The notes: generated from the sequence alone by a model not told the origin. DNA of 47,593 nt from Candidatus Krumholzibacteriia bacterium (GCA_026387805.1 JAPLKY010000206.1:1-47593); one strand, 5' to 3'. Shown: positions 2,909-30,133, numbered from the stretch's first letter. Numbers and translations: made by a program.

Positions 2909-2921
2909 ACCCGCGCAGATG

Positions 2922-7690: not shown

Positions 7691-7828
7691 AACATGAGCA
7701 CCTTACTGCACCAATATATCATACGCTCGGGGACGAGTAAAGTTCCTTAACGGGGCGGTCCGGGCGGGCGGTCGAGACGGCCTGCTTGCGGCGCGAGTCC
7801 CCGGTTCATCCCGCCGCCATTGTCTCCC

Positions 7829-10054: not shown

Positions 10055-10059
10055 GCCCT

Positions 10060-13350: not shown

Positions 13351-16338
13351 CTATCTGATCAATACCATTTTCTTCGTTGCCGTGTAGCTCGGAGCAACGA
13401 GCCGATAGAAATATATGCCCGATGCAACTCTCTTCTCTTGATCATCCAAACCATCCCACATTACGCGATAGCTCCCGGGTGCGTGTTCCGCGTTCACCAG
13501 CAGCTTCACTTGTTGCCCACGAGCGTTATAGATTCTGATAGTTATGCACCCCTTGCTTGCCACGTCATACGCAATTTCTGTCGACGGGTTGAATGGGTTA
13601 GGATAGTTCTGGTGCACAAGGAATGCTTTGGGATCAGGAACGCCAAGGACTTTCTGAATGAACATTCTGATCTCATATTTCGGTCCTTCACGGGAATCCC
13701 GAACCTGATCATATAACATCTCCAGGACCTCCCTCTTCTCGCCGCGGCCGAACTCCTCCGTCCCCGGTCTGCTCGAAACGCCTCCCGAATGCGTCTTGCC
13801 CCAGTTCAGACAGACGGGGATAAAATCACCTATATCAATTCGTCCGCTGCCATCGGCATCGGCAAATGCGGCTTCGGGATCGGGCCAAATTCGTACGGTA
13901 TGCGATGACCATGCATAGTCAATCCCGATTCTCTGCGGCCCCGCTGCATACCAATGCTCGGCTAACGGCAGCACGTCGGCTGCTTCCACCACACCGTTGT
14001 TGTCCAAGTCACCCGGCCAGACGGCCAGCTCTCCTTGAATGGTAAAATCGCTGTTGCTTATCACAGAAGGATAGCCGTCGAGATCAGAGATCCGCACTCT
14101 GCACGTTGCAGAATGAACGGCGGGGACAGTCCATGTGTAGCTGCCATCATTTTCAGTACTCGACGTTATCGTGGACCAGTTGTTCCCGCCGTCGACAGAA
14201 TGCTCAATTCTGACGTTTCCCAAGACGCAGCTAGATTTCCAGACGATGTCACACGTATTGCCTGCGAGCAGTTTCTCGCCGCCGTTGGGAGCGGTCAAGG
14301 AGATTGCGGCTTCTTGAACCGTTATCCGCACTGGCGCTGATACCGCGAAGTCCAAACCGTCGCTTACGAGGAAAGTGACGTCGGTACGGCCCGACCAGTT
14401 TGCTTTAGGCTGAATATCGACGTATCGATTCCTGTCGATTGCCACCGCACAATTCGTGTCAGAATTCTCATGGACATAGTATCGCAGCTTGTCATCATCG
14501 CACTGCAGATCGACGGTGTACTGCCAGAGATCGAGAGCGTTGTCAAGTCGGCCACTTTCACATAATTGCAGATTGGGCTGGGTCCCCCACGCTATAATCG
14601 GTTTCGTATTGCGGTCTATCGTATTTTGGTAAAAGCATTGAACTCCGCCGCACCGGTCATATCCTTGTGCTATCCAGAACACCCAAAACCAACCGAAGGT
14701 TTCCGGATGAAACGATTGCACAACACGCCAAATTGGGCTGAATCCGTAGCAGTATTGATCGTACCCATCCGAGTTGCTGTCCATTAAATCCAAGAGGGCG
14801 CCTGTTACCCTGTATATCACTTTATCGCCGTTATCCCAGCCGTTACGCCACGTTGGTTTTTCGAGATCGACTGAACCTCCTCCTGGGAAATCAAATGTCT
14901 GATCGCCGATGACCGCCAGGGGATAGAAGTTCGCCCACCCCTCGTTCCATGCGCAATTCGATCCGCTCACCTTATAGGTACTGTAGAGCCCGTCATCCGG
15001 GCAGTCGCTAGGTGGCAGGGATTTATAGATGTTCCATATCATATTATGGGCCATTTCATGAAGTACGACGTCGGGCGCATCATCCGCGCTGCCCGTTTTT
15101 ATGTGAACATGACCTCCATTAGTATACCAGGCCAGAACATTGCCATTGTTCCACGGATCCTTATCATCAGGCCATTCGGCTATGGAACCGCCCGGCTGAT
15201 CGGGTGGATACCGAAAACCGCGATCCAAGTCATCCTTTATCCACCATGCCTTGACATAAAAAAACAGAATGCTCTTTGGTATGGCCCATGAGCCGATGCT
15301 GTTCGTGCCATCGGCAAACGCATACGCTCCAGTAGTGCCGTAGTATGTGTCATCCAGGCTGTCGCCCCCACGATGCACGACCAGGAGCTTGTAACTGTTC
15401 GGAGCGTAACTGACATACGTATAGATCCTGACTTTGACGCCAGTTGAGCCCGGATTGGTTACTGGTGGAAAGGTGAATTCCCCCCGACTATTGGTATATG
15501 CCCAAGCTAAATGGGATCCCGAACCATTCAGCAGCCGCACCAGGAAATAGCGGGCCGGCACCGGTTGGGCAAACAGATCATTCTCTGATCCCCTGTCGTA
15601 GTAGCTGAATTTCCCGGTGATTGTAAGGCTGCCGGCAGCGCTCTGCAGTTGGTGCGGGGCTACATTCTCCCGATCCGGATCCAGATCTGGAGGCTCTTCG
15701 GTAATCTCATCGACCGTCATACCTCGGATTCCCTCATTCGACCCTGTGCCGGGTAATGCATCCGGCAACTTTAGGGGCACAGCCTCAATGCGCATCGAAT
15801 CCCCTTCGAGAACATAACCCTCGCGGCTTCCGCTGTCATTGATGCTCAGCAGAAGATAGTCTACGGCGCTGTATGACGTGATTGAATCTGCTCGGGTTCG
15901 CGCACAAGCCTTGATGTACCAGTTCCCCGGGCTTTTAAACACGATCTGCGCTGAAAACGAATCAGGACTGCCTTGGCGCAAATCGCCGCGCCAGGAAAGA
16001 CTCCCTCCGGTCAGAGTTGCTCCTTCGGGCAATATGATTTCTGCGCTCACATTGGGCATATCCCAACTGGCATCCATGATGCAGCGAATTTCCGCTTGCT
16101 CCCGCAAGGCTGGAAACTCGGGCATGGACAACTTGACTTTGAGCGGAGTGCTGATTGCTTCGCGGGAAGGCTCCTTTCCAAGGTCTGTGTAGTCCTCATG
16201 CTGCTGCTGATCTTTCGCAATCGGTTTCATCCCATTGCCACTGATAATTCCCTCTCGTTCGCCCACCTGCCACGCCAATGACAAAACTAGAAGAACGATT
16301 GCAGTTGCCGGCACAAGAGCATATCGAGTGGTCTTCAT
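13351..16338 (-). CDS. 995-aa multidomain secreted HExxH protein with a dockerin module and a T9SS-type C-terminal sorting domain
   Basis: It has an N-terminal signal/anchor and HEMAH at nt 15046-15060. Two EF-hand-like dockerin segments, GDLDNNGVVEAADVLPLAEHW and ADADGSGRIDIGDFIPVCLNW, lie at nt ~13801-14013. The C-terminus is NYPNPFNPSTEIAYDV...IRIYNARGQQV...WDGLDD...SGIYFYRLVAPSYTATKKMVLIR. Confidence 0.8.
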   Translation of the reverse strand: MKTTRYALVPATAIVLLVLSLAWQVGEREGIISGNGMKPIAKDQQQHEDYTDLGKEPSREAISTPLKVKLSMPEFPALREQAEIRCIMDASWDMPNVSAEIILPEGATLTGGSLSWRGDLRQGSPDSFSAQIVFKSPGNWYIKACARTRADSITSYSAVDYLLLSINDSGSREGYVLEGDSMRIEAVPLKLPDALPGTGSNEGIRGMTVDEITEEPPDLDPDRENVAPHQLQSAAGSLTITGKFSYYDRGSENDLFAQPVPARYFLVRLLNGSGSHLAWAYTNSRGEFTFPPVTNPGSTGVKVRIYTYVSYAPNSYKLLVVHRGGDSLDDTYYGTTGAYAFADGTNSIGSWAIPKSILFFYVKAWWIKDDLDRGFRYPPDQPGGSIAEWPDDKDPWNNGNVLAWYTNGGHVHIKTGSADDAPDVVLHEMAHNMIWNIYKSLPPSDCPDDGLYSTYKVSGSNCAWNEGWANFYPLAVIGDQTFDFPGGGSVDLEKPTWRNGWDNGDKVIYRVTGALLDLMDSNSDGYDQYCYGFSPIWRVVQSFHPETFGWFWVFWIAQGYDRCGGVQCFYQNTIDRNTKPIIAWGTQPNLQLCESGRLDNALDLWQYTVDLQCDDDKLRYYVHENSDTNCAVAIDRNRYVDIQPKANWSGRTDVTFLVSDGLDFAVSAPVRITVQEAAISLTAPNGGEKLLAGNTCDIVWKSSCVLGNVRIEHSVDGGNNWSTITSSTENDGSYTWTVPAVHSATCRVRISDLDGYPSVISNSDFTIQGELAVWPGDLDNNGVVEAADVLPLAEHWYAAGPQRIGIDYAWSSHTVRIWPDPEAAFADADGSGRIDIGDFIPVCLNWGKTHSGGVSSRPGTEEFGRGEKREVLEMLYDQVRDSREGPKYEIRMFIQKVLGVPDPKAFLVHQNYPNPFNPSTEIAYDVASKGCITIRIYNARGQQVKLLVNAEHAPGSYRVMWDGLDDQEKRVASGIYFYRLVAPSYTATKKMVLIR

Positions 16339-16548
16339 AATCGAACCTCGCTTTCGGTTGGCTGGCCCTCGCCGAGAATAACGGCCGCATAGTGCGTTTT
16401 TCGGATTACAAAGCGATCGGAGAGAAAAACATTCGCTCGGACGGGATTCGCCGGCGAATTGGAATGGATCTATTTTCCGAAACCATCCCTTTCATGCCGT
16501 TCAATGGTCGACAAGCCGTGGAATCCAAACTCAAGAAAGGAGAGCGCC

Positions 16549-17202
16549 ATGAAACATCAATCCACTCACATTCCTCTCGTGCTTTCGCTCCTTATCCTTC
16601 TGCTGGCGGCGATCGCTACCGCCGGCCATTCCGAAGGGCAACTCAGGTTTGGCGGATACCTGCTTGCGCCCAGCGACGATGATATATGGAGCAAAGCGAG
16701 TGGAATGGATGCACAGCTTATCATGTGGGGTAAGCACGCAGGCATCGGCTTTACGTTCGGCTATGGCGAATGGACCGTTCCCGAGCAGTCCTCGGTCATC
16801 AGCAACTCATACTACGCGGTCGGGTCGGCGGTCGAGGGCAACGCGAACATGACCCCCCTCGGACTATCGCTGTTTCTCCGCACAGGCTCGAACAGCAAAG
16901 TGAATCTGATAATCGAAGGCGGGTTGCGCCTTCTCCTCATGGGATCCGATATCAATGCATCTCTTGTCTACTACGACTATTACAACTATGCAACCGCAAC
17001 CGGCACGATTGAGATCGACAACGCATTTGCGGGTATTCTCGCGGCGGACCTCGAGATCGGAGGGAATGAAACCGCCTCGCTCTTCGTTGGCGGGGGCCTT
17101 CAGATAGGCGGCACAAGCAAAATGAAATTTCAGAATCAGGAATTGGGCGAAGTCGAACTTTCCGCGGCCTTCTTACGGGCCGGCTTTACCGGAAGATTCT
17201 GA
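16549..17202 (+). CDS. outer-membrane beta-barrel protein (OmpA-barrel/OmpW-like porin family)
   Basis: ATG at 16549 follows an AAGGAG at 16537-16542, so the track's longer start at 16459 is unlikely. It has signal peptide ...LLLAAIATAGHS, alternating hydrophobic strands and a C-terminal ...FLRAGFTGRF ending in Phe. Confidence 0.65.
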   Translation: MKHQSTHIPLVLSLLILLLAAIATAGHSEGQLRFGGYLLAPSDDDIWSKASGMDAQLIMWGKHAGIGFTFGYGEWTVPEQSSVISNSYYAVGSAVEGNANMTPLGLSLFLRTGSNSKVNLIIEGGLRLLLMGSDINASLVYYDYYNYATATGTIEIDNAFAGILAADLEIGGNETASLFVGGGLQIGGTSKMKFQNQELGEVELSAAFLRAGFTGRF

Positions 17203-17236
17203 TCCCAGAGGACCGAAAAGAAGGGAAGGGGACAAA

Positions 17237-17860
17237 ATGAAGTTCATTTCTGTTTCGATCCTGGCGCTCGCCGTCACTGCATCAAATGCGTTCGCGGCGC
17301 CACCCAGCGAGGTCGAGCTCTTCACCGCGGGGCATGACTACTGGGGCCTGCAGGAGCAGGTCTTCATCAGAAACAATGGTCAGTATGGCATCAGCGCAAC
17401 CGTCGAAATCACCAGGATTCAAAGGGATCTCTGGATGAGCGAGGAATCCAAGGACTTTAAGAAACTTGATCTGGATCCCGGCGATACGATCTTTCTCGGA
17501 TACACCGTTGAGGATGGCATCGAATTTCAGTACCGCGTGGCGTCAGCCCGCTATATCGAGGATCGACCTCCCGCGCGCCGAGAATCCCCGGGGACGCGCG
17601 GCGAGATCAGAATACGACATGCCTCCGCGTATCCGTGGAGCATCCTCTTCGAAATGAACGGGCAGCGCTATGAATTGAACCCGGGACAGACGGTTGTCAT
17701 ACCGGCGAACGGATGGGCCAACGTCGCAGTATGGGAATGCGTCGGTGCGCGGGATAATTGCGGATGGGATCGGTACACATGCAGCAGTGGTATGAACTAC
17801 CGCATAGTCGATTACCCTGGCGGGCAACAATGGGATCTCGTCGTAGCGGTTGACAATTAG
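17237..17860 (+). CDS. secreted hypothetical protein
   Basis: 207 aa with signal peptide MKFISVSILALAVTASNAFA. It starts 34 nt after the OMP gene and is followed by a strong hairpin. I recognised no motif. Confidence 0.6.
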   Translation: MKFISVSILALAVTASNAFAAPPSEVELFTAGHDYWGLQEQVFIRNNGQYGISATVEITRIQRDLWMSEESKDFKKLDLDPGDTIFLGYTVEDGIEFQYRVASARYIEDRPPARRESPGTRGEIRIRHASAYPWSILFEMNGQRYELNPGQTVVIPANGWANVAVWECVGARDNCGWDRYTCSSGMNYRIVDYPGGQQWDLVVAVDN

Positions 17861-17918
17861 AGGGCGAACGCAAATGGAGCGGGCGAGCACCGGAGGGGTG
17901 CGAGGCCGAAGCCAGGCA

Positions 17919-17951
17919 GGAAGCAGGCGGGAAACCAGTCCGCCTGCTTCC
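17919..17951 (+). terminator. stem-loop, probable intrinsic terminator of the OMP/207-aa operon
   Basis: GGAAGCAGGCGG-gaaaccagt-CCGCCTGCTTCC forms a perfect 12-bp stem 59 nt after the stop at 17860. The T-tract is weak (atattct). Confidence 0.5.
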
Positions 17952-18074
17952 ATATTCTGAGTCTGACAATAAAGCTGCGAATTCCTTCCGAAATCGTGCA
18001 GGCTCTCGCGTTCCAAGAGTAGATGGACACATAGGAAACGGACAACCGACTCATATCGACGGGAGGTACAAGCG

Positions 18075-18896
18075 ATGTTCTCCGCAACAAACTGCGAAAA
18101 AGGCACACACTTCGTATTCCGCGAAGCGAAAACGATCGATGATCTCGGGGCGCTTCTGCGGCTTCGCTATCGGGTCTATCGCAACAGCAACCTCGCCAAG
18201 TTCATCCCACAAAACGACTTCAGTCTCGATGTCGATTGCTACGACGTGCGTGCACGGCACTTTGGACTATTTGAGGTAAAGAAGAACAAGGAACGGGCGG
18301 TGGGGTATCTCCGCGTCGTCGAGGATCGCCCGGTTCCGGCTCAGCACACCATCTTCAGCCTCGTCAATGGAATACCGGAGCTGCGCCGCAGGCTCGAGGA
18401 GACGCCCGAATATCCTTTCCCAATGATGAATTATCTGCCCGATCCCTCCGTTCTTGAGAATCTGCGCGAGAGCATAGCCGAGGACGGTGAACGCATGATC
18501 GAACCGTGCCGCTTTGCGCTCGATGAATCATTCAGGTCGCTCCGCCTCGCCAGGCATATGGTTGAATCGATACTCGCAATATTTGGATCATATCTGGGGA
18601 TTGACCACGCGATCTATTGCTGCGATGCCGCCAATGCAGCTTTCTACAAGGCATATGGATTCAATTATCTCGAGGGCATTCCAGTAAGCGACTTCGCGGG
18701 CATCGGCGAGAAGTCGTGCTGTCTATTCGCTTCATATGCGGAACTTCCATTGCCCGTTCGGGAGCGGATCGAACTAATGGCAGATGCCTATGCGGAAACC
18801 GGTAGGATCTGTTGCGTTCCCGGAGAACCGAATCAATTCTATAGCTCCGAACCCGCACCCGATTATGACTTGATTTTCGCCCTGGCAACGGCTTAG
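18075..18896 (+). CDS. GNAT-fold N-acyl amino acid synthase / acyl-HSL-synthase-like acyltransferase (FeeM / exosortase-associated acyltransferase type)
   Basis: A GGGAGG lies 8 nt upstream of the ATG. N-terminal FREAKTIDDLGALLRLRYRVYRNS...DVDCYDVRARHFGLF and C-terminal IEPCRFALDESFRSLRLARHM...FYKAYGF match the layout of this family as I remember it. Confidence 0.55.
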   Translation: MFSATNCEKGTHFVFREAKTIDDLGALLRLRYRVYRNSNLAKFIPQNDFSLDVDCYDVRARHFGLFEVKKNKERAVGYLRVVEDRPVPAQHTIFSLVNGIPELRRRLEETPEYPFPMMNYLPDPSVLENLRESIAEDGERMIEPCRFALDESFRSLRLARHMVESILAIFGSYLGIDHAIYCCDAANAAFYKAYGFNYLEGIPVSDFAGIGEKSCCLFASYAELPLPVRERIELMADAYAETGRICCVPGEPNQFYSSEPAPDYDLIFALATA

Positions 18897-18897
18897 A

Positions 18898-20571
18898 ATG
18901 GCAAGCGGATTCATCAAAGAAAACTCTGCCAACTCGATGGGGAGAAGCCTCATGCATGACTACGATGTGCTGATAATCGGCGGCTACTCGCTGGGCGACA
19001 GCTCCCCGGGCGCCGAAGTAAGGGATTCCATCCGGCTCAGCTACAAGAATCACTACGCGAGCTTGGACTTCATAAAGTTCCTCGTGGAATCAAAAGGCGA
19101 CCTGAACCTCGCCGAAAGCAACTACCGGGAGGGCAATAGATCTCGGCTCGTCGGCCGCCCCCTCAATTCCATATACCTTTATGATTTCCTCAATAGAAAC
19201 GGCATCAGAACGGAATCAGTCGGCTACTTCCTCCTCGAACAGAATAGGTTCAGGGATCTCATGGCTGCAGGACCAAAGGTTGTGGCCATATCGACAACTT
19301 TCATCGAGGACGCACAGAAAGTTGTCGAAATAGCACGGGCGGCACGAGAGCTATCGCCCACCTCCGTCATCGTCGTGGGGGGCGTCAAGATATTAAAGGA
19401 TTTCAGGAAATACTCTCTTTTCAACCAGGGCTACTTCGAAGCATGGGATAAGGAGGCGCTCTCCGCCCACAGCTTCTTTCTGAATGAGGAGCTCGACAAA
19501 AAGCTCGACGCTCTCGTAATAGAGGAATGCGGCGAGCTCACACTCCTCGAGATTGCACGAAAGATACTCGCGGGACAGGACTTCAGAACTTCGCCCAACA
19601 TTTCCTATAGAGCCAAGGGCTCCCTGATCTTCACTGAGCGCATCAGGGAACCGTATTCTTTCGACAAGAATATCATTCGGTGGGATGAAATACCGCGCGA
19701 CATGATCGGCTACGACATTCCCGTGCGCGCCGGGATGGGTTGTCCCTTCAAATGCTCTTTCTGCGACTTCGCGGGCTTGCATAGGGTGAAACTACGAACT
19801 CCCGAAAGCATCATCGAGGAGCTCGCACTCATCCATCGCAGCTTCCCGGAGGCGCACGTGTTTTTCACCGATGACAACCTGTTCACGACGAGGAAGCGCA
19901 CGAAGGATCTCGCGGTCGCAATGGCGCGCGCGGGATTGAAGATTCCCTGGCACGCGTTCTTTCGCACGGATGCGATTTCCGGGGAGAATGCGGAGCTCCT
20001 CGCCGAATCCGGCTGTTTCAATGCTTTACTCGGAATTGAATCCGGAGATGACACCGTCCTTAGGAATATGAACAAGAGAGCGACAAGAGAACAGAACCTG
20101 AAAGCGGTTGAGCATCTGAATAGACACGGCATCAGTACTATTTCCACTATGATAGTGGGCTTCCCTGGCGAAACCACCGAATCTGTCGATAGTACGATCA
20201 GCCTCTTGAACAGCTATCCAGACACGGAGTATCCCATCAACAAGTACTATCCTTTTGTTTTTGTGGTTCTTCCGCTGGCCCCAATCAACTCTCCGCTCAA
20301 CAGAAAAAGATACGCAATAACCGGCGGTTATAGCAAATGGGCTCATAGCACTATGGATTCCGCCACTGCCTCTGACGAGTTTCTGAGATTGTTCAGAGAA
20401 GTCAAGGTCCCCTCCGTGGCTTACCTTGAGTATATTGACCCTGATATTCCCGCTTCGAAGCTTGCTCAAATATCCAGAACCAGGGACGGCATCGTAAAGA
20501 CCCGCATACGGGTCATCGATAAATCGAATGTACAGACGGTGTATGAATCCTTCAAAAGAATCCTAGGTTAG
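18898..20571 (+). CDS. B12-binding-domain radical SAM enzyme (class B rSAM)
   Basis: The ATG lies 1 nt after the upstream TAG. The N-terminal Rossmann-like segment (KVVAISTTFIEDAQKVVEIARAARELSPTSVIVVGG) is followed by CPFKCSFC (CX3CX2C, nt 19741-19764). Confidence 0.8.
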   Translation: MASGFIKENSANSMGRSLMHDYDVLIIGGYSLGDSSPGAEVRDSIRLSYKNHYASLDFIKFLVESKGDLNLAESNYREGNRSRLVGRPLNSIYLYDFLNRNGIRTESVGYFLLEQNRFRDLMAAGPKVVAISTTFIEDAQKVVEIARAARELSPTSVIVVGGVKILKDFRKYSLFNQGYFEAWDKEALSAHSFFLNEELDKKLDALVIEECGELTLLEIARKILAGQDFRTSPNISYRAKGSLIFTERIREPYSFDKNIIRWDEIPRDMIGYDIPVRAGMGCPFKCSFCDFAGLHRVKLRTPESIIEELALIHRSFPEAHVFFTDDNLFTTRKRTKDLAVAMARAGLKIPWHAFFRTDAISGENAELLAESGCFNALLGIESGDDTVLRNMNKRATREQNLKAVEHLNRHGISTISTMIVGFPGETTESVDSTISLLNSYPDTEYPINKYYPFVFVVLPLAPINSPLNRKRYAITGGYSKWAHSTMDSATASDEFLRLFREVKVPSVAYLEYIDPDIPASKLAQISRTRDGIVKTRIRVIDKSNVQTVYESFKRILG

Positions 20572-20589
20572 GAATCGCCGAGAGGCGCT

Positions 20590-22254
20590 ATGACCCATCC
20601 ATCGAGACTCATAGAACAAGCCCTAGGAGAATGGGCGGAAACCCTCGGGTCAGATGCTGTCCTAACCGGCCTGAATGCGACGGAGCTTTACCGGACAAAC
20701 GAGCTTTCTGCCAAGCGCGACATTGCCGCTGTGCTGAAGCCCCGGGGTTCTTCTCAGCTTGTTGCAGCGGTGAGAACGGCGCGCAAGTGCGGCCTCCCCC
20801 TCTACCCCGTCAGCACCGGCTGCAACTGGGGATACGGCGCAGCGAGCCCCGTCGTAGACGACTGTGTAGTCGTCGACCTCTCCAAAATGAATCAGATAGT
20901 GGACTTCGATGAAGAGCTCGGGCTTGTGACCGTTCAGCCGGGGGTGACGCCCCGGCAACTGAGGGATTTCCTGGATGCGAGGAGATCCCGATGGCTTGTG
21001 CCCGTAAGCGGCGCCGGGCCGCAATGCAGCCTCATCGGAAATGCCCTGGAGCGGGGGTATGGTGTCACCCCGTATGTGGACCACTTCAGCGCCGTTACTT
21101 CCATCGAGGCAGTGCTACCCGACGGGGAGATTTATCGCTCGGCCCTTTCGGCTGCTGGAGGCGCGGAGATCGACCAAGCCTTCAAATGGGGCGTGGGTCC
21201 GTACCTCGATGGGATCTTCAGCCAGGGCGCCTTCGGCATAGTGACCGAGATGACTATCGCTCTTGCTCCTATCCCCGAGGAAGTGGTTGCATTCATCTTC
21301 AGCTTAAAAGCGGAAGAAGACCTTGAGCCGGCTATCATCGCAGTCCATGAGATCCTGAAGTCTGTGGGAAATGTCCTGGGCTCGATCAATCTCATGAACG
21401 GCCACCGAATGCTCGCGATGGTCGAAGACTATCCCTTCAACCGGGTCGAAAAGGGAAGCCTCATGACGCACTCCCTTGTGGATGATCTGCTCAAGAAGAA
21501 TTTCTTGGGACGATGGACCCTGGGGGGTATTGTCTACGGCGACCGAGGGCTCGTTAAGTCCGCAATTTCTCTGATCAAGAGACGATCGGCGGGGATCAAG
21601 TGCCGGAAGCTCTTCTTCAATAGAAAGCGAATCAATCTCCTCAAGGCAGTCGCGAGACGCCTGCCCGGATCGCAGGCGGCGATGCTACGAAAGCAGCTCG
21701 GTAACCTCGATGATGCCTTCAATGTCGCGGAGGGCGCCCCGACGGAAACGGCGCTCAAGCTCTGCTACTGGAAGAGCGGGCAGCGGCCGCCGGAGGGGCA
21801 ACTGATGAATCCGGCCCGCGACGGGTGCGGGGTCATCTGGTACTCCCCCCTCGTTCCGATGAAGCCGGAGAAGGCGCGGGCCTACGTGGACATGGTCTAC
21901 CGAGTATGCGCCGAACACCGGATAGAGCCGCTCATCACCTTGACCTCGCTCTCCCACCGCTGCTTCGATTCGACCGTGCCGATTCTGTTCGATCCGCGGC
22001 ACGCGGATGATACAGCGCGGGCGAAGAAATGCTATGAGGCGCTCTTCGAAGCCGGGAAGGAGCTCGGGGTCCTGCCCTATCGCGTGGGAATCGATCATAT
22101 GGGCCTCATTGTCCGGCCCGACTCGACGTACTGGAAACTCGTCGCCAGGCTGAAAGAAGCTATCGACCCAGGCGGCATCATCGCGCCCGGAAGATACTGT
22201 CCGACCGATCACCCTCACGGCGCGCCCGAATGCCGACTTGGCGAAAATTCGTAG
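20590..22254 (+). CDS. FAD-linked oxidoreductase, PCMH/VAO (4-cresol dehydrogenase / vanillyl-alcohol oxidase) family
   Basis: 554 aa containing VSTGCNWGYGAASP, DLSKMNQIVDFDEELGLVTVQPGVT, GNALERGYGVTPYVDHF and FKWGVGPYLDGIFSQGAFGIVTEM. These are the hallmark blocks of the PCMH-type FAD-binding domain and its 4-alkylphenol-oxidising subfamily. Confidence 0.8.
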   Translation: MTHPSRLIEQALGEWAETLGSDAVLTGLNATELYRTNELSAKRDIAAVLKPRGSSQLVAAVRTARKCGLPLYPVSTGCNWGYGAASPVVDDCVVVDLSKMNQIVDFDEELGLVTVQPGVTPRQLRDFLDARRSRWLVPVSGAGPQCSLIGNALERGYGVTPYVDHFSAVTSIEAVLPDGEIYRSALSAAGGAEIDQAFKWGVGPYLDGIFSQGAFGIVTEMTIALAPIPEEVVAFIFSLKAEEDLEPAIIAVHEILKSVGNVLGSINLMNGHRMLAMVEDYPFNRVEKGSLMTHSLVDDLLKKNFLGRWTLGGIVYGDRGLVKSAISLIKRRSAGIKCRKLFFNRKRINLLKAVARRLPGSQAAMLRKQLGNLDDAFNVAEGAPTETALKLCYWKSGQRPPEGQLMNPARDGCGVIWYSPLVPMKPEKARAYVDMVYRVCAEHRIEPLITLTSLSHRCFDSTVPILFDPRHADDTARAKKCYEALFEAGKELGVLPYRVGIDHMGLIVRPDSTYWKLVARLKEAIDPGGIIAPGRYCPTDHPHGAPECRLGENS

Positions 22255-22321
22255 TTCTTGTACCGCTGGGTGCATCTGAAGAAGACTTCATCGTGGGATC
22301 CATACTTAATGGAGTGGTGCG

Positions 22322-22771
22322 ATGCAAGCACGTTCCCATATCCTGCTCGGGCTCATTCTCGCTATCGTTTTCTCTGGTGCGTTCAACACCGTGCCTGGGC
22401 AGGCGAACGGACAGAGTGAGGCCGATACGGTGGCAGCCCAGGATAGCTTCACGCCAATGGAGCTCATCAAGTTCCCGAGCCCCATCTATCCGGACGAGTG
22501 CCATAAGCGAGGCATCGAGGCAATAGTCCACGTTGGGCTCATAGTGAATGAGGCTGGGAATGTGGCGCAAGTTTTTCAAGCTCACACGGATTTCGATAGT
22601 AAACTTGCCCGGCATATGGACAAGAACCGGCTAAGAAGGTTCGCAAAGCTCTTCGAGGACAGCGCCATTGCCGCGGTCAAGCAGTTTGAGTTCAAGCCGG
22701 CTACCCGCGGCGGTAAACCCGTGGCACAACGCGTATGTGATATGAAAATCAGATTTCAGTTACATGATTAG
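22322..22771 (+). CDS. TonB C-terminal-domain protein (short, membrane-anchored or secreted)
   Basis: 149 aa with a hydrophobic N-terminus ILLGLILAIVFSGAF. It has the TonB_C-like pattern PIYPDECHKRGIEAIVHVGLIVNEAGNV...FKPATRGGKPV and lacks a Pro-rich spacer. Confidence 0.6.
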   Translation: MQARSHILLGLILAIVFSGAFNTVPGQANGQSEADTVAAQDSFTPMELIKFPSPIYPDECHKRGIEAIVHVGLIVNEAGNVAQVFQAHTDFDSKLARHMDKNRLRRFAKLFEDSAIAAVKQFEFKPATRGGKPVAQRVCDMKIRFQLHD

Positions 22772-23012
22772 AAGAACTCTGCCGCTCGCCTTGTAGATGC
22801 GAAGATATCAATCGAGAGGATCTTGACGCCATTGGCGGCGCCTTCCATTCAGATTCTTCCGAGAAGAGCCCGCCGCTATCGTCGTCGTATTGGGAGGTTT
22901 CGAGGGAATGAGCTCCAAAACGACAGCGATAGCGCTTAGGCGAGCACCGGAAGGGAGTGCCCGGGAACTTTGTCGATCCGTTCTTGTGGACAGACAGAAA
23001 GCGAGCGCGTTG

Positions 23013-23387
23013 CTATTCTCCTATTATCAACCGCTTTCGTTCCTCTTTGATGCCCTGCGATGCGTGGTATGCATTCACGCAGCGCAGCGAGCAAAAATAG
23101 TCGCCGTCTTCGACGATTACTACACTCCTCATCAGTCTTTCTGCATCACCTTCGATGCTGCTCAAAGCCTGGTCCTTGTTCTTGTTTTGAACTACGTACT
23201 GCTCATCTGGACGCCGCCGTATAACGTCGTAGTATTTCCCGGGAATGAAGGGAACGATCTCGTACCGGGCATCGAGAATCGGCTCTTTGCAATAAGCGCA
23301 TCGAACCGTCTTGCTGACGAATTGAGAGGCACACGACGACAAAACCACAATCGCAGCCAACATAAGAAACAAGAAGCAGTTCCTCAT
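23013..23387 (-). CDS. small lipoprotein with a CxxC...CxxxC zinc-ribbon/TRASH-like motif
   Basis: AAGGAGG lies 7 nt upstream of the ATG at 23387, so the longer track start at 23480 is unlikely. It has lipobox VVLSSC and the motifs CAYCKEP...DGDYFCSLRCVNAY. Confidence 0.55.
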   Translation of the reverse strand: MRNCFLFLMLAAIVVLSSCASQFVSKTVRCAYCKEPILDARYEIVPFIPGKYYDVIRRRPDEQYVVQNKNKDQALSSIEGDAERLMRSVVIVEDGDYFCSLRCVNAYHASQGIKEERKRLIIGE

Positions 23388-23665
23388 ATGCCATCCCTCC
23401 TTTGACATGAACAACGTCAAAGAGAGCTGCTTTTCGGAAATCCCCTCCGGCCGCATACTGCGGATGAAGCAGAAAAACATCTATGCTCGTGCAGGCGGAA
23501 TCAAACCTGTTCTGATGGGCGAATGCCCGGAACCTGTCATAATTCGCCGGCGCGCTACGCGCTTCTTTCGCCCCGCTTCTACCCCTGCCGATTCATCATC
23601 CTTGCGCTCTCCCTGTAACGGGCCCTCCGCCACGCAGGGACAGATTAAGCGACTTCTGCAAGCAC

Positions 23666-24004
23666 ATGCTGGCCATGGCGACGGCCCTTATCCCGCCGCC
23701 ATGGCTACCATTTCGACTCATACCCATCCTACAAAACCGTCTCCTAGCTTACAGTCCCCATCCACCCACTTTTGATTGGGGGGCATTGCGCGAGTGCTTG
23801 AAAATGCGAGTATTGCTACAGCAAAACCTTTACCGACAGCAGGCTCAAGAGGCAAATATGATGTCGGTGCTTTACGACCGCTCGTCCGGGTCCTTACCCG
23901 AGAAGATGCGAGAAATGCAGCTTGGCCAGATAAGAGAGCTCAGAAAGAAGGGATTGAGCGATCATCCTTACGCCTGGGCCGGATTCATTGCGTCCGGAGA
24001 CTGA
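23666..24004 (+). pseudogene. remnant of a CHAT-domain protein C-terminus (third, decayed paralog)
   Basis: The last ~75 aa (GALRECLKMRVLL...MMSVLY...MQLGQIRELRKKGLSDHPYAWAGFIASGD) align with the C-termini of both full-length CHAT genes (GLRRAFEMAG...QMDQIKKLRAEGSADHPYSWAAFIAIGDW). There are no TPR repeats, no HLATHG/LSAC catalytic region and no Shine-Dalgarno (SD) sequence. The frame is open only from 23543. Confidence 0.6.
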
Positions 24005-24106
24005 AGAACTCGGCCGTAATGCGGGACTACTGCCGTTAAACCTTCGAAACGGTCCCGTCCCCAAATCTGATTCATTCAAGAGCAATCCGATTCGGGGAAT
24101 CTACCC

Positions 24107-24604
24107 TTAAAAGAGACTCTTGATAGCCCCCCAACTAGTACCCTCTACGGCAATAGGCTCAGACGTAGTCACTGATAGGATCCCATACCACCACACCAGA
24201 GCCCCGAAGTTGCATCCGCCCGTCTGGCCTTCTGCCTGAAGTGTTAGCTTGTGTATGCCAGAAGTAATAGCTCCAAAGTCAACAACGTCTGTCTTTAGCG
24301 GTCTCCCCATAGGATCGGGGGAGTCCAGGTAACCTAGCCACTCGCTAGTGGTCACATAAGCATCATCCAAGAAGAAGTGGACTCTTATGGATGAACAATG
24401 CCCCGTGACTATATATTGGGCTCTTAATACACCATCCGTCTTGGGGAACACGTTGAAGACAGGTTCACAAACTTGAGTGCCGGAACTTGAACAAAAAATG
24501 CTGATTGCATAAGATGTATCAACTTGACCAGTTGTTCTTGCACAAAGAGAACTGGCAATCAACAACAAGACAAAAGCATCAAGGAATATCGTGTGCCTTG
24601 TCAT
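24107..24604 (-). CDS. secreted Cys-containing hypothetical protein
   Basis: 165 aa with signal peptide MTRHTIFLDAFVLLLIASSLCA. It ends ...VEGTSWGAIKSLF, a C-terminal tag like that of the 1007..2041 product. Confidence 0.55.
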   Translation of the reverse strand: MTRHTIFLDAFVLLLIASSLCARTTGQVDTSYAISIFCSSSGTQVCEPVFNVFPKTDGVLRAQYIVTGHCSSIRVHFFLDDAYVTTSEWLGYLDSPDPMGRPLKTDVVDFGAITSGIHKLTLQAEGQTGGCNFGALVWWYGILSVTTSEPIAVEGTSWGAIKSLF

Positions 24605-24951
24605 TGTTCTACCCCCCGAGAATGGCTAGCCCTGTATCGCACTCCAGCACTCAGACTGCCTTTGCATTAGGGATACAAGACTTGGATTTCATGGGCAGAA
24701 TTTTACAACACACTACACATTTTGTGAAGTTTGTTTTTGCCGCCGCGGGGAATTGGAAGGGGAATCGTGATCCATGGCTGAGAAAGCTTCTTTGTCATGG
24801 GGAGGCGGGGTGGCTGGTGCTTCGGGGACGGGAGGGGCGAAAGGAGTAGGGTACGGACCCTCCCCCAATAAATTCCTCCATATATTGACTCCTGCTCCTG
24901 AAGCTGCACTCCGGCTTGAAGCTAAATCATTGGAACGGCGTAAGTGAAATC

Positions 24952-24980
24952 TTGACAGTGTGGGCCACTCATCGTATCCT
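24952..24980 (+). promoter_or_regulatory. sigma-70-like promoter candidate for the ECF sigma gene
   Basis: TTGACA (24952-24957), a 17-nt spacer and TATCCT (24975-24980) lie ~40 nt upstream of the ATG at 25021. It is unknown whether this lineage uses this consensus. Confidence 0.35.
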
Positions 24981-25020
24981 GCTTACGTTGTGGAAATCAC
25001 CCAAGCTATTCTTATTGAAA

Positions 25021-25647
25021 ATGGGGGTCCAATTGACGGAGGATTTTTCATGGCCTCCTTTTCTCAAGCTGCTCGACAGCGATCCGGCCGCCGCATTTGA
25101 CGGTTTTTATCGTTTTGCGGTCAAATCCCTCACAGATATGCCCCCGAGGCTGATGCGCACCATGAATCGCGACGATTTCGAGGATCTCCTTCATGAAATC
25201 ATCTACCACTGCGTTAAGGATAACTATCGAGTGCTCCGGCAGTACGTTGCGAAAGGACACAGCTTCGCAGCCTGGCTCTATACCGTCGCGCATAACAAAT
25301 GCTTGGACATCCAAAGAAAGCCCATGATTGATTGCGAACCGATAGACAGGGACAAGAACGGGAAGAGCCTGGCGAATGTTCTTGCCGACAAAAAGAGCCG
25401 CGGCGAAGACCGCGCCGAATTGGTGGAGATACTGGAGGCAACCAAAAGGGCAATGGCTCAGATGGATGAACGGTGCCGTCTTTTGCTCGCGCTTGCGGCA
25501 GAGGAATACAAACCAGAGGAAATGGTTCTGGTGTTGAGAATGCCGCCCGGGCAGAACAAGAAGGTTTCTGATGATCTAAGGTATTGCCGGGAGAAGCTGA
25601 AGAAACTGCTGACTCAGGCAGGAATTGATATTAGAGCGTTGCTCTAA
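25021..25647 (+). CDS. RNA polymerase sigma-70 family, ECF-type sigma factor
   Basis: Region 2 reads DDFEDLLHEIIYHCV...FAAWLYTVAHNKCLDIQRK. The region 4 HTH reads ERCRLLLALAAEEYKPEEMVLVLRM...VSDDLRYCREKLKKLL. The ATG at 25021 is preferred over the track's TTG at 24916 because the promoter candidate lies inside that extension. Confidence 0.8.
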   Translation: MGVQLTEDFSWPPFLKLLDSDPAAAFDGFYRFAVKSLTDMPPRLMRTMNRDDFEDLLHEIIYHCVKDNYRVLRQYVAKGHSFAAWLYTVAHNKCLDIQRKPMIDCEPIDRDKNGKSLANVLADKKSRGEDRAELVEILEATKRAMAQMDERCRLLLALAAEEYKPEEMVLVLRMPPGQNKKVSDDLRYCREKLKKLLTQAGIDIRALL

Positions 25648-25770
25648 GTTGCTTCTCGGCGGTAACTTTCTATTTCTCAATAAGATGATGGTCCAAGGAA
25701 TATTTTTTCGAATGCGCCGGCCCGGATCGTTATAATGTAGAGCGCAATTGCAGGGAGCGATAGAAAAAAG

Positions 25771-26778
25771 GTGACTATGCCCCAAAGGCCCGAAAATCAC
25801 GTCTCGGATGAAGATGCCTTGGTGAACAGGCTCATTAGAGAATCGCGCGCCGAGCCGGCGCCCGGCTTCACTCGGCCTACCCAAGAAACGATTCTCGCGT
25901 ATCTCATGGGAACGGCCACTGCTGAGCAGGAAAAGCTGGTACGGAAGGCACTGCTCGAATCAAGAACCTTTAGCGACGAAATCCTGTGCATGGCCCGAGA
26001 TATTGAATCTCTTGACAGAGAGCGACTCCTCGAGCAAAAAAAAAGCCCGGTAGGCATCGCTGCGCCGGAGCTCGCCGACTTCCTAAGGAGACATGAACCG
26101 GATAGAGAGGCGCGAGCAACAGGCTCATTCCTTTCCAGGCTTCAATGGCTGCTGGTTCCCCGCAGACTCGTGCCGATAGCCGCTTCCGCTCTTGCAGTTC
26201 TTACATTTCTAATCGTGAGAATGGCGACGGGGCCGGTGCCGCAGATCGCTGAGACCACGCCGCCCTCTACTGCCCCGGTCGAGGTTGCTCCCATTACCGT
26301 GGCACTCGCCACTTGGAATCTGGTCAATTCAGCATTGGATCCCGGATACTTGCAGTCGAACATAACGCGCGGCGCCGAAACCCCGCAGCTCTACTCGAAC
26401 GCAAAAGAGGCTGCGGTTGCGAAGATAGCGTATCTTCTTGAACCGGTGAAAGGCGGATTCCGCCCTAAGTCCATCGAAAAAATGCAGCGCCCCGAGGGCG
26501 CCTATAGAACTGTGATGCTCATCTGCAATGATGTATCGGGAAACCACATAAAGGACATCGTAACGTATATTCCTTCAGTGCCCAGCACTGCCCGGCCCCG
26601 CATAACCGCCTGGGCCCTGACTCTGCCGGCGAGGAATCTGTACAATCTTCCGATGAAATCGGATACGATAACGGTACTTTTCTCAAAAGACATGCCTGCG
26701 GACGCGTGTATCGTTTTCACCTATGCCAAAGACAAAGAGCAGAAGGCAATACCAGGGTACTCACTCGAGAAGCAATAG
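25771..26778 (+). CDS. single-pass membrane protein, putative anti-sigma factor
   Basis: It lies directly downstream of the ECF sigma gene. The N-terminus ILAYLMGTATAEQEKLVRKALLESRTFSDEI resembles an anti-sigma N-domain without zinc ligands. It has one TM segment (LVPIAASALAVLTFLIV) and a ~170-aa extracytoplasmic domain of unknown type. The start is GTG 25771 or ATG 25777. Confidence 0.5.
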   Translation: MTMPQRPENHVSDEDALVNRLIRESRAEPAPGFTRPTQETILAYLMGTATAEQEKLVRKALLESRTFSDEILCMARDIESLDRERLLEQKKSPVGIAAPELADFLRRHEPDREARATGSFLSRLQWLLVPRRLVPIAASALAVLTFLIVRMATGPVPQIAETTPPSTAPVEVAPITVALATWNLVNSALDPGYLQSNITRGAETPQLYSNAKEAAVAKIAYLLEPVKGGFRPKSIEKMQRPEGAYRTVMLICNDVSGNHIKDIVTYIPSVPSTARPRITAWALTLPARNLYNLPMKSDTITVLFSKDMPADACIVFTYAKDKEQKAIPGYSLEKQ

Positions 26779-26854
26779 TTCTTTGTGAACGTATCATTGT
26801 ACTTTTTGCGGCGGCTGCGTTAATCCATTGTGAAAAATGAACCGGAGGTGGGCA

Positions 26855-30055: not shown

Positions 30056-30133
30056 GGAGAGGCCCAAACGCTTTTCGAACGCCGCTACAAGCATGACAAC
30101 TATTTGGACGATCGCAATAAGAAGGAGGAAATT

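Follow-up and report, generated by a model that had tools for sequence, protein, structure and literature searches.

Organisation of the three-gene cassette

The window, that is, the whole stretch of 47,593 nucleotides analysed here, is a contig of a metagenome-assembled genome (MAG) of Candidatus Krumholzibacteria. Three ORFs on its plus strand form a compact cassette, encoding a FeeM/LuxI-fold acyltransferase resembling N-acyl amino acid synthases (NAS; 18075-18896, 273 aa), a cobalamin-type (class B) radical SAM enzyme (18898/18952-20571), and a flavoprotein resembling the 4-phenol oxidoreductases of the VAO/PCMH family (20590-22254, 554 aa). All three are real ORFs and were recovered at the coordinates and in the single direction given for three packed genes in a preliminary description of this DNA. 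Of the two intergenic gaps proposed there, that of 18 nt between the second and third genes was confirmed, whereas that of 1 nt between the first and second depends on the choice of start codon. The longest radical SAM ORF, from 18898, has 557 aa, but the NCBI protein has 539 aa, homologues begin at MxDxDVLIIGG, and the ATG at 18952 has a GGGGAG Shine-Dalgarno sequence in front of it, so the gene probably occupies 18952-20571 and the gap is probably 55 nt. The acyltransferase gene has a GGGAGG Shine-Dalgarno sequence 8 nt upstream.

In the acyltransferase, the Pfam family FeeM (PF21926) scored 36.9 bits against a cut-off of 27, over profile positions 71-138 of 158 only, and Acetyltransf_5 scored 28.1 bits; PF21926 was also carried by 17 of 19 relatives (window protein not counted). 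The score against the NCBIfam profile TIGR03694, which represents exosortase-associated NAS, lay below the cut-off (26 vs. 111.95 bits), and a profile built from the family of the window protein was matched to TIGR03694 by hhalign with 97.2% probability. The AlphaFold model (pLDDT 88.8) was searched with Foldseek, and the top match was FeeM (2g0b, E = 4.5e-8), followed by the acyl-homoserine lactone (AHL) synthases MesI, BjaI, LasI, EsaI, and RpaI. Residues D57, R80, E143, and R146 (E143-x-x-R146) were invariant in the family, with D54 present in at least 90% of sequences; D54/D57, R80, and E143/R146 were aligned with D78/D81, R102, and E143-x-S-R146 of TIGR03694, a putative catalytic D..D, R, E-x-x-R constellation that we take to be the LuxI-family residues. 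The protein is predicted by family, from sequence and structural model, to be an NAS-type acyltransferase. It had been described as a GNAT-fold protein with the layout of NAS and AHL synthases, which agrees with the Pfam and structural matches, and its relatives among FeeM, TIGR03694, and the AHL synthases distinguish it from an ordinary acetyltransferase. FeeM itself is the N-acyl-tyrosine synthase of the fee cluster from soil eDNA, in which, as in the window, an NAS is accompanied by downstream tailoring enzymes. Identity between the window protein and 2g0b is only about 14%, a sequence-profile search against 2g0b gave E = 0.32, and the window family is set apart from FeeM by some 70 additional residues at the C-terminus, ending in an Ala-rich tail (...ALATA in the window).

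The radical SAM enzyme scored 91.8 bits with Pfam Radical_SAM, and a script located the CX3CX2C motif of the [4Fe-4S] cluster, CPFKCSFC, at nucleotides 19741-19764 on the plus strand, exactly where it had been reported (residues 282-289 of the 557-aa ORF); its cysteines (C264, C268, C271) were invariant in 26 homologues. The cobalamin-binding type of N-terminal domain that had also been claimed is less directly supported by Pfam, since B12-binding reached 21 bits against a cut-off of 32.1; many homologues carry PF02310. The full-length model (pLDDT 91.2) matched best the B12-bound structures of TsrM, MgmA, OxsB, CysS, and TokK. The best NCBIfam match was the PhpK family (TIGR04479, 271 bits vs. 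a cut-off of 600), and no NCBIfam family (PhpK, HpnR, BchE, and others) was matched at its cut-off, the scores for those other than PhpK lying far below. The CX3CX2C motif and, probably, the two-domain architecture are shared with the methyltransferases TsrM, PhpK, CysS, TokK, and MgmA, which supply the best structural and HMM matches, although identity to solved structures is 13-17%. On these grounds the enzyme is a predicted cobalamin-dependent C-methyltransferase; the substrate of TsrM is an aromatic amino acid in its free form.

The flavoprotein scored 89.4 bits with FAD_binding_4 and, among PDB sequences, matched VAD, nsVAO, PCMH, EUGO, and VAO with E values of 1e-60 to 1e-41, compared with 1e-13 for D-lactate dehydrogenase, so it belongs with the 4-phenol oxidoreductases rather than with D-lactate/glycolate oxidases. 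The three sequence blocks quoted earlier as typical of this subfamily, STGCNWGYG and FKWGVGPYLDG among them, were found at nucleotides 20812-20838, 21037-21075, and 21181-21213. When residues were mapped onto EUGO, with the numbering verified on the 5fxd sequence, the phenolate-binding triad Y91, Y471, and R472 corresponded to Y82, Y497, and R498 of the window protein, which were conserved in 118, 118, and 119, respectively, of the 119 members of the clade. The covalent-FAD histidine (EUGO H390, VAD H387), to be checked along with the triad according to the preliminary description, was absent: the position is Val415 in the window and Leu, Val, or Ile in 117 of 119 members. The acid near flavin N5 was missing as well, the position of EUGO D151 being occupied by Val139 (V139/S140) in the window and by Val in 112 of 119, though this mapping is approximate because of a loop insertion. 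In the clade the Asp-Leu pair is replaced by Val-(Thr/His/Ser) in a loop with a 3-residue insertion, PV[THSC]GAGPxC. FAD is probably held non-covalently, and with both the flavinylating His and the N5 Asp/Glu missing, the reaction chemistry may not be that of VAO. In nsVAO, too, covalent FAD and the acid are lacking (PMC7617285). Neither the flavoprotein nor any of 10 neighbouring ORFs examined in the interval 13351-26778 contained the CxxCH motif of cytochrome c. The window clade has the fold, the FAD_binding_4 domain, and the Tyr/Tyr/Arg triad in common with VAO, EUGO, PCMH, VAD, and nsVAO, but differs from the VAO/PCMH 4-phenol oxidoreductases in having neither the His, the acid, nor a cytochrome c partner, and in a genomic setting that appears biosynthetic rather than one of lignin or phenol catabolism.

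Recurrence of the trio and neighbouring genes

The trio was found in six to seven other loci of related candidate phyla, five of them with the same gene order (L001, L002, L010, L169, L170) and one reversed, flavoprotein-radical SAM-FeeM (L009). Its recurrence in genomes independent of one another shows that the arrangement is not a chance one. It is not obligatory, since a Zixibacteria locus (L004) retains the FeeM and radical SAM genes but no more than a remnant of that for the flavoprotein, and another related locus (L171) has a FeeM-like gene with neither partner. The orthologues of the radical SAM enzyme form a small clade and, where enough flank was available, mostly lie beside FeeM-like genes (exception, L005), whereas about 50 remoter homologues (30-39% identity) have neither a FeeM-like nor a flavoprotein partner. 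The combination of a FeeM-like enzyme, a B12 radical SAM enzyme, and a VAO/PCMH flavoprotein had not been recognised as a described pathway, and no paper describing it was found in the literature.

An upstream secreted-protein operon and a downstream TonB-C protein had been noted beside the trio. The latter is indeed present, as a small signal-peptide protein with a TonB_C domain (42.5 bits) encoded on the plus strand at 22322-22771, while the upstream ORFs at 16459-17202 and 17237-17860 matched no family. Neither the upstream ORFs nor the TonB_C gene had a counterpart at the related loci compared, a set without L169-L172, and both are therefore probably outside the system.

A different group of genes, all on the plus strand, follows the cassette over a larger distance. 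It begins with an ECF-type sigma-70 factor (24916-25647; TIGR02937, 44.8 bits against a cut-off of 42.9), homologues of which, with 27-51% identity, lie beside the cassette at L001, L010, L169, and L171. The next gene (25771-26778) matched no family and is a putative anti-sigma factor by position; its homologues adjoin the sigma gene at L001, L010, and L171. Two paralogous TPR-CHAT proteins are encoded at 26837-30055 (CHAT 210 bits, TPR_12 253 bits) and 30104-33265 (CHAT 226 bits), and homologues of the former lie beside the cassette at L001, L002, L009, L170, and L171. An ECF sigma/anti-sigma or a TPR-CHAT gene adjoins the trio at all six to seven other loci. Unlike the TonB_C gene and the ORFs upstream, this module is counted as part of the system, and expression of the cassette is probably tied to it.

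Proposed pathway and alternatives

The reading that we favour, by a little over even chances, is that the trio is a cassette for a tailored lipoamino acid, an N-acyl-tyrosine-type lipid that is benzylically oxidised and C-methylated. In the order that we infer, the FeeM/LuxI-fold enzyme would transfer a fatty acyl group from acyl-ACP or acyl-CoA to the amine of a 4-hydroxyphenyl amino acid, most likely L-tyrosine, so that the first product would be N-acyl-tyrosine. The flavoprotein would then hold the phenolate in its Tyr/Tyr/Arg triad and abstract hydride at the benzylic position (Tyr C-beta) to give a p-quinone methide, which might tautomerise to N-acyl-2,3-dehydrotyrosine or be hydrated to the beta-hydroxy form. 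A methyl group would be placed by the cobalamin radical SAM enzyme on a carbon of the scaffold, possibly ring C-3, C-beta, or the acyl chain.

Related products are known from other enzymes. N-acyl-2,3-dehydrotyrosines whose ring is C- or O-methylated occur as natural products of NAS, methyltransferase, and desaturase together, and the clusters of the stieleriacine/tyrazolone type, which carry out methylation and 2,3-desaturation of the tyrosine side chain, are packed as tightly as operons (PMC12479983). The clusters for stieleriacine, for thalassotalic acid, and for kyonggic acid, as well as tyzACB of M. tuberculosis (tyrazolone) follow the same logic of acylation, methylation, and desaturation as proposed here. 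Their tools differ: the stieleriacine/tyrazolone type uses an O2-dependent nitroreductase-family desaturase (TyzC), a class I SAM methylase, and the ThiF-like TyzB, whereas the window has a VAO/PCMH flavoprotein oxidase and a B12 radical SAM methylase in place of TyzC and the class I methylase. No nitroreductase, ThiF, or class I methyltransferase was detected by Pfam among the main ORFs scanned from 13 to 38 kb, leaving NAS as the sole common component. The cassette would correspond to the stieleriacine, thalassotalic acid, and tyrazolone pathways without being homologous to them, with two tailoring steps performed by enzyme families unrelated to those of the known pathways and able, in principle, to run without O2; enzyme types so far not linked to N-acyl-tyrosine-like bacterial signal or surface lipids would thereby be connected with them.

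The phenol need not come from tyrosine, as the triad requires only a 4-hydroxyphenyl group. An aryl-acyl donor (p-coumaroyl or 4-hydroxyphenyl-alkanoyl, as with RpaI) might be used, or tyramine or another 4-hydroxyphenyl amine might be acylated, with the flavoprotein oxidising that moiety, and the structures closest to the acyltransferase model include RpaI, BjaI, and MesI, AHL synthases that depend on CoA and accept unusual acyl donors. This is judged improbable, however, because FeeM, which makes N-acyl-tyrosine, is the top match by both structure and Pfam, long-chain NAS is the annotation of the homologous TIGR03694 enzymes (Craig et al. 2011, cited in PMC7293339), and neither a coumarate-CoA ligase nor a decarboxylase gene occurs near the cassette. 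The role of the radical SAM enzyme may likewise be questioned, since it scores below all named families and counts the non-methylating BchE, HpnJ, OxsB, and AprD4 among its relatives; it could instead catalyse cyclisation, C-C coupling, or rearrangement of the acylated phenol, and the product would then be further removed from known N-acyl tyrosines. Such a role seems unlikely given that methyltransferases make up both its highest-scoring family, PhpK (271 bits), and the structures closest to its model, TsrM, MgmA, CysS, and TokK, and that ordinary SAM methyltransferases occupy the same slot in analogous loci.

Two further explanations were weighed. Lipidation by GNAT enzymes and methylation by B12 radical SAM enzymes are known in RiPPs, namely selidamides and proteusins, and with this precedent the GNAT protein might lipidate a peptide that is C-methylated by the radical SAM enzyme and oxidised at a Tyr residue by the flavoprotein. 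In L004, L009, and L171 the FeeM-like gene has a short ORF of about 80 aa directly upstream that could be taken as a precursor gene, but the window, L002, L010, and L169 show no short conserved ORF within or next to the cassette, the cassette genes are separated by just 55 and 18 nt, neither SPASM or RRE domains nor a peptidase/transporter partner were found, and the wider flavoprotein partners are NAS enzymes for free amino acids; a lipidated RiPP is accordingly regarded as highly improbable. Least credible is an incidental adjacency in which the flavoprotein degrades a 4-alkylphenol or cresol and has no tie to the acyltransferase. Homologues carry the JGI automatic annotation "4-cresol dehydrogenase (hydroxylating)", yet the trio is kept across several candidate phyla despite changes in gene order, NAS adjoins the flavoprotein in most well-flanked loci (28 of 31), and genes for a cytochrome c subunit, an aldehyde dehydrogenase, or ring cleavage are absent near the cassette, in contrast to true catabolic loci (L087, L088, L173), which have such genes, the cytochrome c difference being seen at L087 and L173.

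The acyltransferase-flavoprotein pair beyond the cassette

Returning to the N-acyl-tyrosine-type lipid, a wider reading may be offered tentatively, although we consider it rather doubtful. An NAS-flavoprotein route, with a quinone methide as intermediate and lipids of the N-acyl-dehydro- or beta-hydroxy-tyrosine type as products, would lie inside PEP-CTERM/exosortase loci in Proteobacteria, and in candidate phyla of the FCB group it would have gained a B12 radical SAM C-methylase and been wired to a dedicated ECF sigma/anti-sigma/TPR-CHAT module. If so, an oxygen-independent route could yield a lipid that serves at the cell surface or in signalling and is tied to control of the envelope or of protein sorting.

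The relatives bearing on this reading number at least 564 from the metagenome scan alone. A FeeM or Acetyltransf_5 gene was located within 8 kb of the flavoprotein gene in 53 of 84 loci overall and in 28 of the 31 that had 4 kb or more on each flank, often at less than 200 bp and on the same strand, and sampled NAS partners scored 232-254 bits on TIGR03694. The TIGR03694 acyltransferases are linked to PEP-CTERM/exosortase loci, are homologous to the window protein at the profile level, and adjoin flavoproteins of the window clade that are about 50% identical to that of the window. The settings differ in that no exosortase or PEP-CTERM genes occur in the window, where the cassette has T9SS-type secreted proteins and the ECF sigma/TPR-CHAT module as neighbours, and the radical SAM gene is missing from the exosortase-type loci.

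Elsewhere the methylation slot is occupied by methyltransferases that are not homologous to the radical SAM enzyme. Plasmid pMPPM04 of Methylorubrum populi carries genes for a FeeM protein (133.7 bits), a SAM methyltransferase of class I, a flavoprotein with 40% identity to that of the window, a halogenase, and an amidase, which points to the same logic with a non-homologous methylase. Class I methyltransferases lie close to the flavoprotein in 7 of 84 loci. At L171, the FeeM-like gene adjoins one for a carboxyl methyltransferase of the ICMT family; enzymes of this type act on lipid-tailed amino-acid carboxylates.

Layout and families of the three genes

The FeeM-like acyltransferase (gene 1; 18075-18896, + strand, 273 aa), the B12 radical SAM enzyme (gene 2; 18898-20571 in its longest form, + strand, 557 aa) and the VAO/PCMH-type flavoprotein (gene 3; 20590-22254, + strand, 554 aa) were found compactly arranged in one direction, as in the preliminary description, and were followed by a gene for a protein with Pfam domain TonB_C (22322-22771, + strand, 149 aa). 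The radical SAM protein was 100% identical to an NCBI entry of 539 aa from a Candidatus Krumholzibacteria MAG, which begins at M19 of the 18898 ORF. The start at 18898 was disfavoured; the deposited protein, the N-termini of homologues (MxDxDVLIIGG) and a Shine-Dalgarno sequence (GGGGAG) indicate that 18952 is most likely the start of the gene. With this start, the gap between genes 1 and 2 is 55 nt and not the 1 nt previously given. A Shine-Dalgarno sequence (GGGAGG) was also present ahead of gene 1, and scans for sigma-70 promoters and intrinsic terminators gave signals at background level and no operon boundaries.

The gene 1 protein scored 36.9 bits against Pfam FeeM (cut-off 27), with an additional match to Acetyltransf_5. 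Its placement by sequence was otherwise weak, with 26 bits against TIGR03694 (exosortase-associated acyltransferase) and E 0.32 in a profile search against FeeM, the eDNA N-acyl-tyrosine synthase (2g0b); sequence search of the PDB gave unrelated GNATs (E 0.035). An AlphaFold model was built with an input of 20 relatives (pLDDT 88.8), and its top match by fold comparison was FeeM (E 4.5e-8), followed by the AHL synthases MesI, BjaI, LasI, EsaI, RpaI and TofI; among the PDB searches, the predicted kinship with FeeM was thus resolved only at the level of the modelled fold. The family profile was aligned with TIGR03694 N-acyl amino acid synthases (NAS) over 206 columns (hhalign probability 97.2%, E 4.5e-11), and the invariant residues D..D, R and E-x-x-R occupied the same alignment positions in both. 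These results agree with the NAS/acyl-HSL-synthase-like GNAT originally proposed. An exhaustive search at E <= 1e-30 yielded 279 clusters at 50% identity, and the idea of an extremely rare family, derived from the 20 members returned by word-index search, was dropped. From the family size and the structural and profile results, the relatives of gene 1 form a separate subfamily, of moderate size, within the FeeM/LuxI-fold acyltransferases. FeeM-like proteins ended in a short Ala-rich tail behind a variable linker (ALATA in the window, 18870-18896); the terminal residue was Ala in 80 of 140 full-length representatives (from P0121-P0140 and P0261-P0404), and VAA, AVA, LAA and IAA were the commonest final three residues. 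This tail resembles an ssrA-type degradation tag and could shorten the life of the synthase.

The radical SAM protein matched Pfam Radical_SAM (91.8 bits) and, below threshold, B12-binding (21 bits), and its CX3CX2C motif was located at 19741-19764. Among NCBIfam models, PhpK, a family of B12 radical SAM methyltransferases, matched best (271 bits against a cut-off of 600, across residues 90-503), and scores for all other NCBIfam families were far under their cut-offs. Its model (pLDDT 91.2) was most similar in fold to cobalamin-bound TsrM (E 6.5e-19), with further matches to MgmA, OxsB, CysS, TokK and AprD4. The protein is a predicted class B-type enzyme, as first described, outside every named family, and its predicted activity is most likely methyl transfer.

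The flavoprotein matched Pfam FAD_binding_4 (89.4 bits) and contained all three motifs reported for it. The 4-phenol oxidoreductases VAD (8s7x, E about 1e-60), nsVAO (E 1e-59), PCMH (E 2e-50), EUGO (E 2e-49) and VAO (E 2e-42) were far ahead of D-lactate dehydrogenase (E 1e-13) among its PDB matches, which bears out the 4-cresol dehydrogenase/VAO subfamily assignment. The EUGO sequence, whose numbering was checked, was aligned with 119 clade members for residue mapping. The phenolate-binding residues of EUGO, Y91, Y471 and R472, correspond to Y82, Y497 and R498 in the window and were kept in 118, 118 and 119 of the 119 members, respectively, but the flavinylating His390 was replaced by Val, Leu or Ile, so that of the FAD-linking His and the phenol-binding residues only the latter were found. 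Two invariant tyrosines, Y393 and Y418, are candidates for a PCMH-type linkage to FAD (Tyr384 in PCMH). Asp151-Leu152 at flavin N5 was replaced by Val-(Thr/His/Ser) in a loop with a 3-residue insertion. The His and Asp-Leu positions govern covalent binding and oxygen reactivity, and nsVAO is a natural non-covalent member that is active (PMC7617285). The kept and replaced residues therefore define a predicted phenol-binding but atypical branch of the 4-phenol oxidoreductases. No cytochrome c motif was found in the neighbouring ORFs checked, and VAD, not PCMH, was the top match for both the pNL1 and the Paraburkholderia plasmid homologues. With 1801 proteins at E <= 1e-30, many of them ~50% identical, the clade is large, and no NCBIfam model covers it.

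Recurrence of the trio and its neighbourhood

Loci with close radical SAM orthologues (at least 44% identity) were surveyed, and the triad was present elsewhere. The order FeeM-rSAM-flavoprotein was found on an 893-kb MAG contig (L001/L008), in a metagenome (L002/L003), in Eisenbacteria (L010) and at two loci whose FeeM-like protein was 83% identical to that of the window (L169, L170), and the reverse order, flavoprotein-rSAM-FeeM, in a MAG (L009). A Zixibacteria locus (L004) carried intact radical SAM and FeeM-like genes with only a C-terminal remnant of the flavoprotein, so that the latter is either decaying or dispensable at this locus. That the trio is conserved although its order has changed speaks for a functional link, and the trio is a unit. 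The L004 remnant (9204-9812) comprised the C-terminal third of the flavoprotein, with 60% identity to residues 347-538, and abutted a histidine kinase gene.

No counterparts of the TonB_C gene or of the two genes for secreted proteins upstream, which had been listed with the cassette, were found at the related loci under comparison, and all three were rejected as parts of the system for this reason. The recurring neighbours were instead an ECF sigma factor (TIGR02937, 44.8 bits), a putative anti-sigma factor and one or two TPR-CHAT proteins, here named the regulatory module (24916-33265 in the window), parts of which flank the cassette or the FeeM-like gene in the window, L001, L002, L009, L010, L169, L170 and L171. 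A short ORF between the TonB_C and sigma genes held a 50-residue stretch (23852-24001) with 52% identity to the C-terminus of a CHAT domain (...HPYAWAGFIASGD), probably the remnant of a third TPR-CHAT gene. G+C falls from ~0.62 to ~0.53 across a 25-kb block (~13000-38000), which may be an acquired island; besides the cassette and the sigma/CHAT module, it encodes several secreted proteins bearing T9SS C-terminal sorting domains (13351-16338, 33789-34700). A family of ~80-aa ORFs (N-terminus MFF..., then E..L.aM.E.W.K) was located directly upstream of the FeeM-like gene at L171 (9734-9985), L004 (11805-12041), L009 (~9780-10258, two copies) and L001 (~8653-8859), and was absent from the 215-nt region upstream of that gene in the window.

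About 50 distant radical SAM homologues (30-39% identity; PVC group, Deltaproteobacteria and Dehalococcoidia) had no FeeM-like or flavoprotein partner, and their neighbours (regulators, FadL/TodX, an SDR) gave no clear functional clue. A FadL/TodX outer-membrane channel was repeatedly encoded beside relatives at this identity in PVC-group and Nitrospirota MAGs (L016, L020, L024, L032, L056, L058), most of which also had an adjoining hybrid histidine kinase, and a GAF-HD-GYP protein and a sigma-54 activator recurred near other distant homologues (L017, L032, L033, L039, L054). These neighbours suggest that the enzymes help to make or sense a hydrophobic small molecule. At L005 (9662-12953), two tandem paralogues (54% and 48% identity) adjoined a 7TMR-DISM/GAF histidine kinase gene on a contig with neither a FeeM-like nor a flavoprotein gene. 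Homologues of ~30% identity in eukaryotic data sets (P0104, annotated as Pelomyxa schiedti; P0062 and P0065, EukProt entries) suggest transfer of the family into eukaryotes.

Proposed pathway and alternatives

VAO-family enzymes remove a hydride from their substrates to give a p-quinone methide. After acylation by the gene 1 protein, the gene 3 protein would take a hydride from C-beta of an N-acyl-tyrosine, and the resulting p-quinone methide would give exactly the 2,3-dehydro product by tautomerisation or beta-hydroxytyrosine by hydration; the gene 2 protein would carry out C-methylation. Stieleriacines, thalassotalic acids, kyonggic acids and tyrazolones are N-acyl-tyrosines, most with a 2,3-dehydrotyrosine core and the stieleriacines additionally C- or O-methylated on the aromatic ring, and have been attributed to an NAS, a SAM methyltransferase, an O2-dependent nitroreductase-type desaturase and a ThiF-like enzyme (PMC12479983). 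On this product template and the VAO chemistry, a pathway of acylation, benzylic oxidation and C-methylation, as a non-homologous counterpart of those pathways, is the reading that we favour with modest confidence; the gene families and their linkage are observed, and we infer the substrate, step order, methylation site and product. Unlike the known pathways, the cassette consists of enzyme types without intrinsic O2 need, which fits the presumably anoxic lifestyle of the lineages that carry it, and it would exemplify convergent acylate/methylate/desaturate logic built from families able to work anoxically.

The favoured pathway could differ in its parts, in that tyramine or an aryl-acyl donor, and not tyrosine, might supply the phenol, which we consider rather unlikely, or the radical SAM enzyme might be something other than a methylase, to which we would give about the same small chance. 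The ~80-aa ORFs upstream of the FeeM-like gene in L004, L009 and L171 could be taken as precursors in a RiPP pathway, but the family is absent from the window, and neither a conserved precursor ORF nor an RRE/SPASM domain was found, which makes this reading highly improbable. A catabolic or incidental arrangement seems less probable still.

Full-text literature searches returned no paper in which NAS appeared together with radical SAM and FAD, or cresol dehydrogenase together with exosortase, in line with the combination not having been recognised as a described pathway; the sole match for 'N-acyl amino acid synthase' and 'cobalamin' was a comparative-genomics study that, judging by its title and abstract, is not about a cluster of this kind. 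NAS with tailoring enzymes is already known as a kind of system; new here are the families of the tailoring enzymes, the added radical SAM enzyme and the tie to ECF/CHAT genes. The bacterial signals and surface lipids that are N-acyl amino acids (stieleriacines, tyrazolones, commendamide) make up a growing class, and 4-phenol oxidoreductases are used in biocatalysis; the cassette would offer a new substrate class for these oxidoreductases and for class B radical SAM methylases.

NAS-flavoprotein pairs beyond the cassette

To our knowledge, the link of NAS to exosortase protein sorting has been without explanation since 2011, and the flavoprotein clade, with its kept phenol-binding site, is a candidate second enzyme for it, with the testable prediction that the clade oxidises N-acyl-tyrosine via a quinone methide. 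Flavoprotein neighbourhoods were sampled at 84 loci (80 from a metagenome scan and four by look-up), 31 of which had at least 4 kb on both sides. A FeeM/Acetyltransf_5 gene was found within 8 kb of the flavoprotein gene at 28 of these 31 well-flanked loci, and at 53 of all 84, often at a spacing of <200 bp on the same strand. The partners sampled were either genuine TIGR03694 proteins (232-254 bits) or strong members of the FeeM family, and other frequent neighbours were PEP-CTERM proteins, a Wza-like exporter, a large TPR protein and a priming sugar transferase. Craig et al. (2011), as cited in PMC7293339, had tied NAS genes to this exosortase/EPS setting.

On Methylorubrum populi plasmid pMPPM04 (L082; NZ_AP014813.1:1474-8740), genes for a FeeM protein (133.7 bits), a class I SAM methyltransferase, a flavoprotein 40% identical to that of the window, a flavin (Trp-halogenase-like) halogenase, an amidase and a flavodoxin-like reductase all lie in one direction. 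This gene content points to an N-acyl aromatic amino acid bearing halogen and methyl groups as the product of this apparently undescribed cluster, whose host is a cultured, tractable organism. BLASTP between the window FeeM-like protein and the Methylorubrum FeeM gave no significant similarity, so that the two loci are linked by the flavoprotein and the shared Pfam family and not by NAS orthology. At L171, the FeeM-like gene was followed by a gene of the ICMT family, which methylates carboxylates of lipid-tailed amino acids. On these observations the NAS-flavoprotein pair is general, and a methyltransferase of some kind is often present as a third member. Cassettes with a B12 radical SAM enzyme in this place are confined to a few FCB-related candidate phyla.

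At L138 (~2400-5613) and L140 (~4790-7990), a 1068-aa ORF with an NAS-like domain ended 10 bp upstream of the flavoprotein gene and may represent the synthase fused to further domains. At L085, a proteobacterial-type locus, the flavoprotein and NAS genes were followed by a gene of PF02441 ('Flavoprotein', EpiD/Dfp-like decarboxylase family; 10716-11327), which hints at oxidative decarboxylation as an extra tailoring step.
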